A stretch of DNA of 64,000 nucleotides, taken from assembly GCA_963706325.1 (NCBI GenBank), contig CAVPLT010000005.1, positions 1-64,000 of the forward strand, in the 5' to 3' direction. The position numbers are program-made. Positions 42,001 to 51,000 of this stretch are shown here, piece by piece; position 1 is the first letter of the stretch; every line of letters begins with the position of its first letter. Source of the stretch: an uncultured Nitrospiraceae bacterium. GTDB lineage: Bacteria > Nitrospirota > Nitrospiria > Nitrospirales > Nitrospiraceae.

Positions 42001-45000
42001 GAGGCTCTCCAGGATATTTCACGGGATCCGGATCGTCAGTGGATCGTGCGATTGGAGTCGGGGCAATCGATCTCCGCGATTGATGTTCAAGAACAATTTC
42101 TCGCCGCGGCGCAGCGCTATTGCAAGGGGCAGGACGAAGAGACCGATTGGGTACTGGAGCAATGGGAAGCCGTGCTGGTGGATCTGCGGGGCGACTATGC
42201 GAAGCTGGTGGGCCGAATCGATTGGGCCTCGAAATTATGGCTTTTGGAGACCTATCGTGAGGCGGAGCAGGTTGGGTGGGATGATCCCATGCTGAAGAGC
42301 CTTGATTTGGAATATCACAATCTTCATCCCGCGCGAGGACTGTGTTATGGCTTGGAAGATGAGGGACGCGGTCCTCGATTGACCACCGACAAGGGCGTCC
42401 GTTTGGCGCAAGACAATCCGCCTCGTAACACGCGAGCCTTCGGTCGAGGTGAGCTGGTCCGGCATTTGTTGGGCCATGGCACCTCGGAAACTCCAGGCGA
42501 TGAAGTCGTGGAGGCCGACGATCAGTTGGCCTGCCACTATATTATCAACTGGTCGAATTTCAAAGTGCGGGGCACGTCGCCATTCTTTATGGCGGACCCG
42601 TTCAAAACGTACGTGACGGAAGTTCGCGACCATCTTGCCGGTCGCTAGGTGCTTACCTATCGTCTCATTCCGATCCGCTCGATAGCCCCCTTCGAGACGT
42701 CAAACGCAAACCGCAGTTGCACCGCGAAGTACTTCTGGACCAATCCGGAGCTGTCCAACGGGCGGTCTTCCTCCCGATAAAACGCGACTTCCATGTCCTT
42801 CCAACGAAGGGCAATGCCGATAATCCAGTCAAGTTCCGAGGGATTGAGGGTGTTGCTAGCATCGCGATCGGTAAAGAAATTCATGTCTCCATACAGCACC
42901 ACCTTGTTCTTATACAGATCCAGGTCGGCATGGGCCACGTAGCGGAAGAGCGCCCGTCCCGTATTGTTCGGGCGCGCGAAGTATTGGCTGTTGTAGAAGA
43001 GCCATCCTGCGCCGGCATAGGCCGTGAGATTTTGGTTGGGAAACGTCCGTCGCCACCATGTGGATTCTTGAACGGCTTGGAAGCGGGCCGTCACCAGCGC
43101 ATCGGCATAGGCCTGTTTGAGCCCGCTACGGTCGAGCGGAGCATCGCGTTCATATTGCAGGCGCCAATTGAACCGGTCGAGCACGCCGGTGAACGCAAAG
43201 GTGCCGTCCCATTCAGACAGTTCGATCCATCCGTTAGTGCGGTCCGAGAAAAAGTTCTGATCGGTGTAAAACGTGAGGTACTGCTTGTAAAGGTCCGTTT
43301 CCAAGTGCAGCATGTGCCGCATGCCGACAAGCCCTGAATTGTCCGGCCTGGCGGCGAACGACGGATTCTTTACAAAGGCGCCGGTAAGCAGGTACCCGCC
43401 GAATAGGGTTTCTTCTTCTTCACGACCCTCGCGGCCCGGTTCCTCCATGGAGGGGAGTGGACGTCCATATTTTTCCAGCCCAAATACCTGTCCAACCCCG
43501 AAAGTCGCAAAGAGAAGGCAGCCAGTCAACAGCGCGTGGATGAGTGGTTTTCGATTGCAGCGAGGGCCGGCCATCATTCTTGGCAGCGGGCGAAAATCTC
43601 TTCGCAGTCGTTCGAGGCATCTACCGAACTGGGTGCGAAACGGTACTGAACCAACTCGACTCGATTTTGTTGAAGCATCACCGTCGCCCAACAGCCATGA
43701 TGCGCTGTCGGACGGCTGCTCTTTGACGACACCATGGACTCTTCGAGCAGCGGCGCTTCACGGTAATAACGAAGCAGAGTGAACGTTTCATCGTGCCACT
43801 CGCGCAACGGCATGCCGGCGCAGGACAGAACCTCTTCTCTGCTTTGGCCCCGCAACGATTGCTGGTGGGGATATCCTTCCGTGCTAGGTTGGGCCTGGTG
43901 GCAGGCCAGCAGCCACAGCACCGCGATGACGATTAGCAGGCCCTGAACTACCCGAGAGGGAATAGCGTGCATAGAGGTAACTTCCGGCAAAGAACGTACG
44001 GCACACTGGGTAGCATAGCCGTGATGTCAAAGCAACCCAGACGGTTGGACTCGGCCTGGGTGATTCTACGGGGCAGCTCGTATTTCTGGAGATCTGCATG
44101 CGTGAGCGTTGAGGCTCTCCTGCACCCAGGATGTGGACGTGGTTAGGCTGACCGTGTCGTCAGAATTGTGACAATCGTCATTGTTCTGACTAAGGGCCGC
44201 ATCATCGGCAACTATATCATTTGGTAGCGCAATCTTTGACCTGGTAGCAATCAACTAGGGTATTTCTTATAGGTGCCGATATATGTTTTTCTCGGTGAGG
44301 TGTTGACAAATGCGTTCATTTCCCTAGAATAAGCTGCGAATACGATCAAGGTAACAGTCAGCTTTTGGCCATATCTGAGGCCGTGCGTGCCGCTTAGTCC
44401 CTCCCTGTCCTATCATCGACATCAGCCTATATCATCTGGAACTGTTCATGCGCTTGCAAGAGCGCAGCCTCGTTTTGGACTCGAAGCCTGGGTAGGCCTT
44501 TGTGATGCCAAGACTGCGCGTTACCACCACGTTGTAAGACCACGGCGAGCAATTTTACAGGAGGAATGCATGTCTAATGATATGGCGATCAGTTGCGAGA
44601 GTGGGTTTGCCGTCGATGCGCTTGAGGAAGTCCGCCCTGCCGCTCTCATACCTGAGCGGAGAAAAACCTCCGAGGTTTGGTCGTTGACCATTGAGGAACG
44701 ACGAGCCTCGCGTCGCTGCCAGGTCCACCTCCCGGCAATATTGCACAACGCAGATGGTCGTCGGAGCGGAGTCGCCAAGAGTATCAGTTTCGGAGGCGTG
44801 TCCTTACATTTCTCCGGGGACGTTCTGGCCCTGCTCAACCAACATATCAGACTGGGGTTTAGTTCCAACGCCGATGAGCTCGACAGTCTTGGAGTGGTGT
44901 GCGGCCTCCGGACATTCGGGAATGGATTTCCGTTCGGCGGGACCGATGCCGAGATCAGTTTGGCCGTTCAATTTGTGCGTCTCAGCCCCGGTGATGAGCA

Positions 45001-48000: not shown

Positions 48001-51000
48001 CAGTGTGGTGCTGAACAAGGGCCTCGGCTATGCCATTGTGTTGGCCATTATTGTGGTGGCGACTTCAATCGGGGCGGTTCTCAGTCATCGTGCCACCGGA
48101 CACTCGACGCCCCCTTTACTTGCCGGCACACTTTTCCTGATTTGCGCCTTATGGGTACTCAGCAACAATCCCCGGTCGACGGCGAATATCCTGTTCAGCG
48201 GCGTCTGCGGCGCAGCCTGTTTTTGGTTGTTCGGTTGCTTCATGTTGTTCTCGGCGTCTCACGAAGATGAGGCGCACTTTTGGATGCAGGTCATCTATAT
48301 CGGCATTGCACTCTTGCCCGCGTTGACCTATCACTTTGCGCAGAGCCTTACCGGATGGGCCTCCCACGACCGCCTGATCACCTGGAACTATGCCCTTGGC
48401 GGTGTATTTGCAGGACTAGTGTCCACTTCCTACTTATTCGACGGCCACTACATATATTACTGGGGGCGATACCCCAAGGCTGGAGTCCTCCATCCCGCGT
48501 TAGTTTTGTATGTGGTGGCAGGCGGGTGCCTGACTCTTTACCGTCTCTATCAGGGGTACCGTCTGCACGTCCGCTCGTCTCCGCTGTTGGGGGCACAATT
48601 GAAATATACCCTGGCAGCTCTCGCGCTTGGGTTCATGTCCTCTTTCGACTTTCTGCAAAATTACGGCATGGGTTTCTATCCCGTAGGTTACCTGCTCGCG
48701 GGTTTATCGGTCACCGTCGTCGCCTATGCCATTGCTCGCTACGAATTGATGGATGTGTCATTTGTTCCGACCCGCCCCAAAGTGATGCTGTCCATCAAGC
48801 TCATGGGGCTGATTCCGGCCTACATGATGATCCTGCTGGTCATTCGTATTTTTACCGGCACGTTTCACTACTTTTTGGCCGGGGTGCTGTTTGGGTTGTT
48901 CGTCATTGTATCAAGCGGGTTGGCCAACCTTCAGAAAGGCGTGGAGCGGGCCATTGGACAAACGCTGTTTCGGGAGCGCTATGACGCCTACGATACCCTA
49001 GTGCAGTTTTCCAAGTCGCTTGTGGCGATTCTTGAATTGAAGTCTCTCACGAAAGAGATCGTTCAAACGCTGGCGCGAGTGATGAACATCAAGACGGCCT
49101 CGGTGTACGTGCTGGACAAGGAGCAGGGGATCTATAGCTTGACGGCGTCGTATGGGTTTGGATCCCGTGATTCTCAGGTGCCCCCGATCAAGATGGAGAG
49201 CGAATTCCCCAAGGCATTGTTGCGAACGGAAACGGCCCTTGTTCGAGAGGAGATCGAATACGATAAGGCGGATGCTGACCACGTAAGGCTGCTCAATACG
49301 TTGCAAGGGTTGGAGTCAGAAGTCTGCATTCCGTTGATCAGCAAGGAGCGTCTCGTCGGGTTTTGCAACCTGGGGCGTCGGTCCAATCAGGGCATGTACT
49401 CGACTGAGGAACTGGGACTTCTCAAAACCCTGGCGCAACATGCGGCTATCGCGATCGACAATGCCTTGCTCTACGAAGACTTGCGTCGATCGCAACTGCT
49501 GATGCGACGAACCGATCGGCTGCGGTCGCTCGAAACCATGGCCGGTGGGTTTGCGCATGAGATTCGCAATCCCTTGACCTCGATCAAGACATTTGTCCAG
49601 TTGGCGCCTGAGCGACGGGACGATGTGGAATTCATGGAGCAATTTAGCCAGGTGGTGTGTGAAGACGTTGAGCGAATCGAACGGCTCGTTCATGAAATTT
49701 TGGACTATGCGCGGTACATGACTCCAAAGCTTACACAGGAAAGTCTCAACGACGTGGTGTCCTCATGCCTATATTTTATTGAGGTCAAGGCGAGCAGCAA
49801 AGCCATCACGATTCAGAAAGATCTGGCTGCCGATCTCCCTTATGTGAAGTTGGATCGACAACAAATTAAACAGGTCCTGCTGAATCTCTTCATCAATGCC
49901 ATGGAAGCAATCGGCGGTGAGCAAGCAGGCCGGCTGGTTGTCCGAACGCGAAATTTGGTCAGGCCGGCCGATGATCCTTGGGTTCAGATTGAAGTGGAAG
50001 ATAGTGGGCCGGGAATCGAGCCAGGCGATCTCGACCATATCTTCGATCCGTTTTATACGACGAAGCACGAGAGCGGGGAGCGCGAAGGAACGGGGCTTGG
50101 TCTGACCATTGCGCATCAGATTGTTCAAGAGCACGGAGGCTATCTCGAAGTCACCAGTGAAGTCGGCCACGGCACAAAATTCATGGTCAATCTTCCGGTC
50201 AATCCACCAGTTGCGGAATGGCATGCCGCACAGCCAGCCTACGAAGAGGGGCGTAAACTGGTAGGAGCGTTTCTCGCAAGACCCCACCAGGGGTTGGAAG
50301 AGCAATTCAACAAGCCATCCCCCGTAATCAAGGCCAGCTAGACGACGCGCATAACCGCCATCTCGACCCCTTTGTCCTGGGGAAAACGCTGGGTGTGGTG
50401 TGTCATATTCCGCAGCAGTTGCGCAATCTTATCTCCCCGACGGAGACAATCCGAGAGCTCGTGTTCGACTTTCTATTGCGCTGGAAAGCAGAGACACAAT
50501 TCTATTTTCGGCCCAAAACCGATCCTCTCCTGGGCGACCTTTTTGAAGAAATCCACAATGCCCGCCGTACCGCGATAGTATCGTCGTGATGTTCGGATTG
50601 CACCTGACCGCCGGTATGTCGAATATGGAGACGGGAATGAAGGGATCATCCTGCGCGGTCATCACCACTGTGGGAACAGCAATGTTGTGCAGTACGTGAC
50701 GGGCTCCAGCACGATCATAGTAATCGGCCACATTGGCATACCCTCCGTTCCGGGCAGTGTAACAGGCATCGAACTGAGTGATGGTCTTGATCGCCCTCAG
50801 TGGGGTCAGGTCCCATTCGTTCGGAAAGAGTTTTGCCTTTCGTCTCATTCGAGCCTTGAGGGCGGAGAGGAAGTGATAATGATAAAGCCAATTTTCGGGC
50901 TGTTCCAAGGCAGCGACGCAGCGTGTCAGATCAATGTTCGGACTGACTGCCACCACGCCCGCCAATGCCGGCTCAGACCCGCCCATTTCACCCGCGGCCT

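Follow-up and report, generated by a model that had tools for sequence, protein, structure and literature searches.

The window, a 64,000-nucleotide stretch of DNA from an uncultured Nitrospiraceae bacterium (contig CAVPLT010000005.1), carries two tandem genes separated by 33 nt, which confirms the pair described in an earlier note. The genes, their domains, and the associated sites are as follows.

44159..44190, no strand assigned: tandem palindrome GTCA-N6-TGAC-N4-GTCA-N6-TGAC, candidate activator (enhancer) site (genus conservation)
44303..44330, +: sigma-70-type promoter-like site, TTGACA-N16-TAGAAT (11/12 consensus matches)
44437..44451, +: sigma-54-type (-24/-12, GG-N10-GC) promoter-like site of putative function (conserved in genus alignment)
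44570..47302, +: P0001, 910-aa PilZ-PilZ-LuxD-like hydrolase-class I SAM methyltransferase, candidate signal synthase (Pfam, PDB, AF2)
44696..45022, +: PilZ-1 (aa 43-151), RxxxR kept, SISFGG instead of (D/N)xSxxG (motif alignment)
45176..45562, +: PilZ-2 (aa 203-331), RxxxR and DLSSNG, candidate c-di-GMP site (Pfam, motifs)
45680..46387, +: LuxD-like alpha/beta hydrolase (aa 371-606), triad Ser457-Asp556-His586 (aligned to LuxD motifs, 1THT)
46487..47275, +: SAM methyltransferase domain of class I (aa 640-902), with LDAGCGNG as motif I at 690-697 (Pfam, AF2)
47336..50341, +: P0002, 1001-aa sensor kinase with 7TM-1, 7TM-2, ~2 more helices, GAF, HisKA (His741), and HATPase (Pfam)
47363..48001, +: 7TM repeat 1 (7TM-1), varies with the enzyme encoded upstream, candidate binding pocket for the cognate ligand (tree; identity comparison)
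48116..48757, +: 7TM repeat 2 (7TM-2), inherited separately from the enzyme, with a relative in a Ralstonia 7TM kinase (tree; sequence match)
50429..51460, -: convergent YheT-type alpha/beta hydrolase (NF008218, 175 bits, below the cut-off of 267)

The proposed domain order of P0001 was borne out by Pfam, with PilZ in two stretches (best, residues 203-331), Acyl_transf_2 at 371-606 (E, 1.4e-25), and Methyltransf_11/23/31 inside 672-880. The top PDB sequence match was the myristoyl-ACP thioesterase/acyltransferase LuxD of Vibrio harveyi (1THT; PF02273; E, 7.6e-19; other hydrolases from 2.7e-4), which was also, as had been claimed, the best fold match of the core (AF2 pLDDT, 92.4; Foldseek E, 1.9e-18; TM, 0.84 on the target; in VIA, Z, 31.9; rmsd, 2.8 over 282). 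Fold, cap, and Ser-Asp-His motifs align with LuxD over residues 377-634, and the Ser motif was identical in 56/56 close P0001 orthologues. P0001 differs from LuxD in sequence (~20-26% identity) and in its fusion to a methyltransferase, and it scored 87.4 bits against the curated LuxD model NF052253 (cut-off, 420). No luxCDABE genes were found beside it, the window neighbors being the kinase, a hydrolase, and unannotated genes. The hydrolase also has lipases and esterases among its fold matches (Z, 26-30), which would suit an enzyme acting on an arriving lipid ligand sensed by the kinase, inactivating or altering it by hydrolysis and methyl capping; we consider this very unlikely, given that LuxD ranks so clearly first by sequence and that the other enzymes occupying this position are biosynthetic (e.g., ketosynthases and reductases).

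The methyltransferase half, for which the earlier note had no separate fold match, was modeled by itself with confidence (AF2 pLDDT, 91.7; best Z, 20.6), although unrelated small-molecule methyltransferases shared its top rank. Z values of 17-21, the highest obtained, are common to C-, N-, O-, and S-methyltransferases and to nonmethylating enzymes such as CmoA, so the fold is generic and names no methyl acceptor; another kinase-linked methyltransferase family is related only distantly (hhalign probability, 34%). The P0002 layout of 7TM, 2TM, GAF, and kinase presumably recalls that of LuxN. A SAM domain that drew on the aminocarboxypropyl part of SAM, together with the acyl-enzyme, would yield an acyl-homoserine-lactone-like signal for a LuxN-like receptor, and AHL synthases use acyl-ACP and SAM according to excerpts of PMC13220807; CmoA also lies among the tied matches. 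This chemistry is nevertheless scarcely credible, because P0001 has the motifs of ordinary class I methyltransferases and its methyltransferase-only relatives adjoin LuxI/FeeM-like genes that already do amide chemistry.

As the earlier note had read them, PilZ-2 carries both c-di-GMP motifs and PilZ-1 lacks the second; the (D/N)x(S/T)xxG motif of PilZ-2 is kept in at least 35/56 close orthologues. Within the genus, the PilZ domains are only ~47% identical, compared with 82-85% for the core. Gating by c-di-GMP is not supported as the defining feature, with no PilZ in 25/26 non-Nitrospirota cores assessed, and judged by sequence PilZ is a lineage add-on to the LuxD-methyltransferase core (1/26 outside Nitrospirota). 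The PilZ fusion also has a precedent: excerpts of PMC4897644 describe the PilZ-fused, acyl-ACP-dependent synthases Nas343 and Nas354, of the FeeM type and making N-acyl amino acids, and cite a cAMP-activated NasP. Like P0001 as proposed here, these are lipid synthases with a second-messenger domain for which regulation (here by c-di-GMP) is proposed, but they are GNAT-type amide synthases with a C-terminal PilZ, and the excerpts mention no receptor (PMC4897644).

P0002 is the sole HisKA_7TM protein of this genome; it matches PF16927 twice (50.1 and 42.8 bits; cut-off, 28.6) and has HisKA/HATPase and the phospho-His, which was invariant in 31/31 kinases aligned. Between phyla, the kinases are 35% identical in the 7TM region, 31% in the kinase core, and 23% in GAF. 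7TM-2 matches a Ralstonia 7TM kinase (P0284; 29% over 214 aa; E, 3e-18). The Ralstonia OE1-1 kinase RSOE_00840 is presumably Shk/RSp0220, judging from its neighbors and from locus numbering. RSOE_00840 has a HisKA_7TM sensor with 29% identity to 7TM-2 and, unlike P0002, no GAF, a phospho-His at 227, and no adjacent synthase; Shk affects PhcA-dependent traits (PMC12993560). The PEP-CTERM kinase PrsK (TIGR02916) shares the order of membrane region, GAF, and HisKA and gives a weak match (E, 8.9e-9) along the sensors of relatives that have a single repeat, but its model gave 146 bits against a cut-off of 300, and no exosortase context was seen. Relatives of the convergent YheT-type hydrolase occurred only in genus loci and in one related genome (L131, below); the gene marks the genomic site, and any functional link to the pair would be putative.

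Core relatives numbered 2330 representatives at E<=1e-3, rather than the 1877 claimed, and 219 at E<=1e-30, close to the 217 claimed. The core is not the hallmark of Nitrospirales that it was taken for, being present in 77/134 sampled genomes of the order (~46 of these with only a long REC-PAS form) and also in Verrucomicrobiota, Omnitrophota, Planctomycetota, and Desulfobacterota. A 7TM kinase lay directly 3' of the core in 40/43 GTDB loci and in 30/31 non-Nitrospirota loci, there 0-26 nt past the end of the methyltransferase match. Among 80 loci, those with an intact triad comprised 55 with an adjacent 7TM kinase, 5 without, and 2 at a contig edge, and those with a broken triad comprised 15 without the kinase, 1 with it, and 1 at a contig edge (1 further locus was partial); these adjacency and co-loss counts are not independent, because the loci are related. 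The exceptions were intact cores with a different kinase or none (L028-L031 and L105; the divergent kinases of L028-L031 have ~5 helices and HisKA from 222-227) and L081, which keeps the 7TM kinase with a broken triad. Neighbors of cores or relatives include FabF-like, FadL-like, acyl-CoA dehydrogenase, AMP-binding, and fused START domains.

The sensor also changes as the enzyme is swapped. In L131, a related genome with an orthologous kinase, the upstream gene is PilZ-diiron-oxygenase-like instead of LuxD-methyltransferase, and the kinase matches P0002 at 71-99% identity through 7TM-2, GAF, and the kinase core, whereas 7TM-1 reaches 36%. Conversely, L075 pairs a LuxD-methyltransferase enzyme with a distant kinase, 55% identical to P0002 in 7TM-1 and 38% in 7TM-2. 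In L015 and L033, the hydrolase is dead or missing and the 7TM kinase is kept, with a new PilZ-fused enzyme between. A single clade held 32/33 enzyme-coupled first repeats (FastTree support, 0.98); its 6 other members adjoin a second methyltransferase family. Such exchange suggests a lipid signal not described before, together with its receptor. Enzyme and 7TM-1 lie side by side on the DNA, however, so the joint swap may partly reflect linkage. Starting from the receptors, a Pfam-supported small-molecule enzyme lay upstream in 23/40 Nitrospirota loci (none in the remaining 17), in 16/30 loci of another phylum (13 ketosynthases), and in 0/39 controls, the genes upstream of this genome's other kinases; the enzymes upstream of 7TM kinases included reductases, ketosynthases, and other methyltransferases. 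Several upstream labels (HMG-CoA reductase, Aldedh, TenA/heme oxygenase, and Shikimate_DH) are not in themselves proof of lipid substrates.

The paralogue reported at C4:297084-301283 exists, with REC, PAS, and PilZ. It is not supported as a second active enzyme: Ser is replaced by Asp and the catalytic His is absent, as in all 13 other aligned long REC-PAS forms, so that the long form is broken wherever aligned and the triad, contrary to the earlier note, is not kept across the family. From its residues, it is a degenerate duplicate with a dead hydrolase, an eroded SAM motif, and a sensor-less kinase, and it probably feeds the same regulators as P0002; the 1400-aa paralogue, the more frequent form in Nitrospira, carries a hydrolase/methyltransferase annotation whose hydrolase part is probably wrong. 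The dead REC-PAS-PilZ protein lies directly 5' of a GAF kinase without 7TM in 13/14 aligned long-form loci and in this genome's own, which suggests a noncatalytic role too. Sensing might then occur inside the cell or membrane, with the enzyme informing the kinase of the state of acyl-ACP, SAM, or c-di-GMP, either through a product that stays in the membrane or by direct contact, as in RpfF/RpfC, whose binding is described in excerpts of PMC7912708. We find this distinctly unlikely: it is the membrane repeat, not the GAF/kinase core, that changes with the enzyme and is most conserved across phyla; the unrelated enzyme folds that fill the same slot are easier to reconcile with a small molecule as the link than with contact between proteins; and FadL-like outer-membrane channels occur in 22 loci (FadL-like genes also lie upstream of 2/39 control kinases).

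We therefore return to a synthase and receptor pair for a lipid-derived signal. The cross-phylum adjacency, the joint loss of catalysis and sensor, and the swap of sensor with enzyme strengthen that part of the earlier proposal; that the product is a methyl ester is still something we infer. The LuxD-like domain would transfer the acyl chain of acyl-ACP to Ser457 and then release the free acid, as LuxD does, and the fused SAM domain may methylate the carboxyl to give a neutral, diffusible fatty-acid methyl ester. With confidence a little better than even, we favor this account, in which P0001 and P0002 are such a pair and the product is probably a fatty-acid methyl ester. It is rather unlikely that the pair exists but makes something other than a plain methyl ester, with the acyl group passed to another acceptor or with methylation of a tailored acyl compound at a hydroxyl, carbon, or nitrogen. 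NCBIfam names LuxD an acyl transferase, some cores are accompanied by flavin oxidoreductases, ketosynthases, or START domains, and methyltransferase-only relatives with a 7TM-GAF receptor (11/34 loci) lie beside GH3-like, ThiF-like, LuxI/FeeM-like, or FabF-like genes, so the family appears to accept varied acyl products. Against this, a tailoring gene is absent at most loci, that of P0001 included, and the products of thioesterase, FeeM, and GH3 enzymes would most simply have a carboxyl in common.

The methyl ester would bind 7TM-1 of the kinase, and 7TM-2 may read a second cue. P0002 would then pass phosphate to a sigma-54 activator and a REC-HD-GYP protein at C4:292928-295692; the helix around its phospho-His differs from that of the C4 kinase at 3/28 positions, and both regulators lie directly 3' of the kinase in other Nitrospirales. 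The HD-GYP motif reads GNP in this genome's C4 protein (GYP in 17/19 related proteins). The least secure step is feedback on synthesis, which could act through the enhancer-like site with the sigma-54 promoter and through c-di-GMP on PilZ-2. The tandem palindrome was matched exactly in 15/16 genus genomes, nearly always as the sole match (reversed-pattern control, 2/16; 0 in 100 window shuffles), and persists even where the divergent neighbor gene differs. The sigma-70-type site was conserved in 8/9 aligned upstream regions, and for the sigma-54-type site TGGCAT-N5-[TA]TGC stood 5' of the enzyme in 6/6 loci examined from another taxonomic family (background, 0.03 per kb).

The proposal resembles the Phc system of Ralstonia (PhcB/PhcS; 3-OH MAME/PAME) in logic, with the gene of a SAM methyltransferase ahead of that of a membrane kinase, in the excerpted texts of PMC7912708 and PMC11960443; PhcB makes methyl esters from cognate fatty acids (PMC7912708, excerpt). 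The thioesterase is fused here, and the output is apparently a sigma-54 activator and an HD-GYP protein. In PhcS, a short membrane sensor leads straight into the phospho-His (His230; PMC11960443, excerpt); this layout was not found in P0002, where His741 follows two 7TM repeats and GAF. The DSF system of Xanthomonas (RpfF/RpfC/RpfG) likewise has an acyl-ACP thioesterase synthase, an adjacent membrane kinase, and a REC-HD-GYP output to c-di-GMP (excerpts of PMC7912708). Unlike P0001 and P0002, RpfF is an enoyl hydratase/thioesterase without methylation and RpfC a hybrid kinase with REC and HPt; Pfam found no crotonase domain in P0001. A literature search found no published description of this fusion or pair.

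More tentatively, and at somewhat under even confidence, HisKA_7TM(-GAF) kinases may be the receptors of a broad, modular lipid-signal family, mostly of uncultured phyla, in which a one-gene synthase slot and the 7TM repeat next to it change as a unit, whereas the kinase core and regulators stay. The slot would hold LuxD-methyltransferases, other methyltransferases, acyl reductases, FabH/FabF, diiron enzymes, and FeeM or GH3, often PilZ-fused; nitrifying Nitrospira lineages would have private "dialects," with P0001/P0002 as the methyl-ester member under c-di-GMP feedback. If the pair is as proposed, one gene would convert acyl-ACP to methyl ester, a step open to direct testing in E. coli, and the exchange already made by nature in two related genomes would serve as a ready-made specificity comparison. 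The HisKA_7TM family would gain a ligand class, where the excerpted literature naming it states none, and nitrite-oxidizing Nitrospira, Omnitrophota, Opitutales, Planctomycetota, and Desulfobacterota would gain a candidate cell-cell signal.

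The locus is genuine and intact, and the two open reading frames claimed in the earlier note were recovered with a spacing of 33 nt:

44570-47302: P0001, 910-aa PilZ-PilZ-LuxD-methyltransferase protein, the candidate signal synthase
47336-50341: P0002, 1001-aa sensor kinase with two HisKA_7TM repeats (7TM-1, 7TM-2), GAF, HisKA and HATPase by Pfam

Pfam placed PilZ in two stretches of P0001, Acyl_transf_2 at residues 371-606 and class I methyltransferase models inside 672-880; Nitrospira-named proteins are close homologues. The proposed kinship with the LuxD thioesterase (1THT) held in sequence (top PDB match, E 7.6e-19) and in fold, where 1THT was the top match to the core (the fused LuxD-like hydrolase and methyltransferase; AF2 model, pLDDT 92.4; Z 31.9, rmsd 2.8, 282 residues), with the next hydrolases at Z 30. 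The hydrolase triad is Ser457, Asp556 and His586. Motif I of the methyltransferase (LDAGCGNG) is present in 55/56 close orthologues. As previously described, the second PilZ domain has both c-di-GMP motifs and the first has only the first motif; both diverge faster than the core (47% versus 82-85% identity).

On balance, in the most likely scheme the LuxD domain would release an ACP-bound acyl chain, which the SAM domain would cap to give a methyl ester for 7TM-1 to read. Modelled by itself (pLDDT 91.7), the methyltransferase half is a generic class I domain, and its fold was uninformative as to the methyl acceptor; the top matches (Z 17-21) were a tie of unrelated small-molecule methyltransferases, CmoA and Coq5. 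Another methylated acyl compound as the product is conceivable, if unlikely.

P0002 is the sole HisKA_7TM protein of this genome. A GTDB scan for the core (best 80 of 189 matches kept) gave 43 strong core loci (L046-L088), and within these best 80 a 7TM kinase starts directly downstream in 40/43. Outside Nitrospirota it does so in 30/31, the remaining locus being at a contig edge, and a gap of 0-26 nt separates the methyltransferase match from the kinase there. An alignable core was present at 80 loci once three duplicates had been removed. Among these, intact triads had an adjacent 7TM kinase in 55 cases, none in 5 and a contig edge in 2; broken triads lacked the kinase in 15, had it in 1 and lay at an edge in 1; one further sequence was partial. 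The loci share ancestry, so these counts represent few events and not independent trials. Two loci have lost the hydrolase and kept the 7TM kinase, with a new PilZ-fused enzyme between, TenA/haem-oxygenase-like in L015 and FabH-like in L033. P0002 very probably senses, in one form or another, a product of its neighbouring enzyme; that the enzyme instead inactivates a ligand sensed by the kinase is hardly to be expected.

Four loci (L028-L031) carry a divergent PilZ-LuxD-methyltransferase with an intact triad; an acyl-CoA dehydrogenase (and FadL in two) precedes it, and a five-helix hybrid kinase comes after it together with a REC-kinase, a layout nearer to PhcS/PhcR or RpfC. In Opitutales loci (L054:11777-13123 and 16 others), a conserved 450-500 aa gene with a C-terminal REC follows the kinase, accompanied by a divergent GAF-PAS kinase and FadL.

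A paralogue on another contig was weighed as a second active enzyme and rejected:

C4:292928-301283: REC-PAS-kinase-like-PilZ-PilZ-dead LuxD-eroded methyltransferase; 7TM-less GAF kinase; sigma-54 activator (GSFTDA variant); REC-HD-GYP; adjoins recN

Alignment contradicts that reading. The paralogue and 13 other REC-PAS-PilZ-fronted long forms (L032, too degenerate, was left out of the tallies) have Asp for the catalytic Ser, no catalytic His and eroded SAM motifs, and the kinase paired with them has GAF and HisKA domains but no membrane helices. The C4 region is a degenerate duplicate.

The core was detected in 86/401 Nitrospirota genomes: 64/89 in the family of the window, 11/43 and 2/2 in the other two families of the order, and few elsewhere in the phylum. 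Judged on score and reading-frame length, the long form is the sole form in about 46 of the 64 core-bearing genomes of the window's family. Among the best 80 of 189 GTDB matches, 31/43 strong core loci were titled Verrucomicrobiota/Opitutia, Omnitrophota, Planctomycetota, Desulfobacterota, 'Proteobacteria' or short archaeal contigs. The description of the core as a Nitrospirales hallmark therefore does not stand. PilZ occurs on 1/26 non-Nitrospirota cores (26 of the 31 loci; the ORF caller missed five) and additionally on a divergent spirochaete fusion. Two cores (L049, L052) lie on 2-kb contigs of archaeal MAGs, where mis-binning is possible.

The best 7TM-1 matches in the genomes covered adjoin the core, except second copies in one family. 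A receptor-first survey of 40 loci, taken from 7TM-1 matches other than the core-adjacent top ones, found a Pfam-supported small-molecule enzyme upstream of the 7TM kinase in 23: HMG-CoA-reductase-like (6), TenA/haem-oxygenase-like (3), Shikimate_DH-type NAD enzymes (3; presumably acyl-ACP-reductase-like), a second methyltransferase family (3), FabH-like (2), Aldedh (2), fatty-acyl-reductase cassettes (2), hot-dog thioesterase (1) and FabF-like (1). PilZ was found on 12 upstream enzymes, 7 by Pfam and 5 by local profile only. The HMG-CoA-reductase-family gene lies directly upstream in L129, L135, L137, L139, L140 and L141, PilZ-fused in at least four. In the phylum of genome G401 (26 loci scanned, flanks just 1.5 kb), 16 of the 30 best loci had an upstream enzyme (ketosynthase 13, ICMT/PEMT-type methyltransferase 2, core 1). 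None of the 39 genes scanned upstream of other kinases in the genome under study was of these kinds; unscanned upstream genes resembled regulators or kinases. FadL adjacency was discarded as specific evidence because FadL-like genes also precede 2 of these 39 control kinases (FadL/TodX-family porin genes C3:8498-9943 and C7:270731-272218, each immediately before a histidine kinase, the two kinases being unrelated).

Methyltransferase-only relatives accompany a 7TM-GAF receptor in 11/34 loci, with GH3, ThiF, LuxI/FeeM or FabF-type genes alongside; AHL-like chemistry by P0001 itself is very improbable. In L091, L092 and L098 a methyltransferase and a LuxI/FeeM-like gene stand with a 7TM-GAF-GAF-HD phosphodiesterase-type receptor, the sensor kept and the output domain different. 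A Ca. Manganitrophus plasmid record (L045:7113-11595) has a double-7TM kinase and sigma-54 activator with the upstream synthase absent.

In a FastTree phylogeny built from 100 7TM repeats after exclusion of 29 near-duplicate loci, 32/33 core-coupled first repeats, from all phyla, fell in one clade (support 0.98). The other six members of this clade are kinases located close to the second methyltransferase family; the FeeM-type label of L106 was assumed and the upstream check did not confirm it. Across phyla, identity was 35% for 7TM-1, 31% for the kinase core, 23% for GAF and 37-38% for the enzyme halves. The plainest example of a sensor that tracks its enzyme is L131: its kinase matches P0002 at 71% in 7TM-2, 84% in GAF and 99% in DHp, but at 36% in 7TM-1; it occupies the same genomic site (YheT gene downstream), its upstream gene is PilZ-TenA/oxygenase-like, and the exchange boundary falls between 7TM-1 and 7TM-2. 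The more distant L075 kinase, with the core kept, is 55% identical in 7TM-1 and 38% in 7TM-2. Physical linkage of enzyme and 7TM-1 may contribute to joint exchange. Intracellular or contact sensing by the pair seems improbable. The YheT hydrolase was discarded as a dedicated signal esterase because its gene persists where the enzyme is swapped.

The 7TM profile gave a single, chance-level match in the PDB, and an ESM Atlas search returned unnamed HisKA_7TM clusters only. A 7TM kinase of Ralstonia shares 29% identity with 7TM-2; by its neighbours and locus numbering it is probably Shk (PMC12993560).

The phospho-His helix of P0002 matches the C4 kinase (72% over DHp; next best 37%). In L009, L020, L033 and L075 a sigma-54 activator and a REC-HD-GYP gene of C4 type follow the 7TM kinase directly; the C4 regulators are therefore likely partners of P0002. 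The GYP motif is intact in 17/19 REC-HD-GYP relatives and reads GNP in this genome. Three features lie upstream of P0001:

44159-44190: tandem palindrome, exact match in 15/16 genus genomes
44303-44330: sigma-70-like site
44437-44451: GG-N10-GC site

In a second family, TGGCAT-N5-[TA]TGC lies upstream of the enzyme in 6/6 loci examined. These motifs would fit autoinduction. No riboswitch or known RNA reached the Rfam gathering score near the locus.

Elsewhere in the window, 35712-42648 (+) holds what look, from the translations, like an AAA ATPase, two ligase/deamidase-like genes and proteasome alpha- and beta-like genes, with a short Pup-like ORF whose product would end in GE (about 39070-39264); the whole is presumably a Pup-proteasome cluster. 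Divergent ORFs at 42657-43990 (-), 138-aa lipoprotein-like and 344-aa outer-membrane-like, have no Pfam match and recur in several, not all, genus loci. Two ORFs at 54147-55351 (-) resemble, by eye, an IS3-type transposase pair.

P0002 may resemble LuxN in layout. P0001/P0002 would resemble two known systems in workings and differ from both in architecture: PhcB/PhcS, whose signal is a methyl ester derived from the cognate fatty acid (PMC7912708 and PMC11960443), and RpfF/RpfC/RpfG, a thioesterase synthase with HD-GYP output (PMC7912708). PilZ-fused acyl-ACP synthases are already published (PMC4897644). The literature searched, with most subscription papers and supplements outside its scope, describes neither a LuxD-methyltransferase fusion nor a HisKA_7TM ligand, and titles and abstracts on Nitrospira signalling mention nothing of this pair. 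P0001 and P0002 thus appear to be of the synthase/membrane-receptor kind, in a variant new to the literature searched, and good comparative evidence suggests that the 7TM kinases form a modular receptor family.
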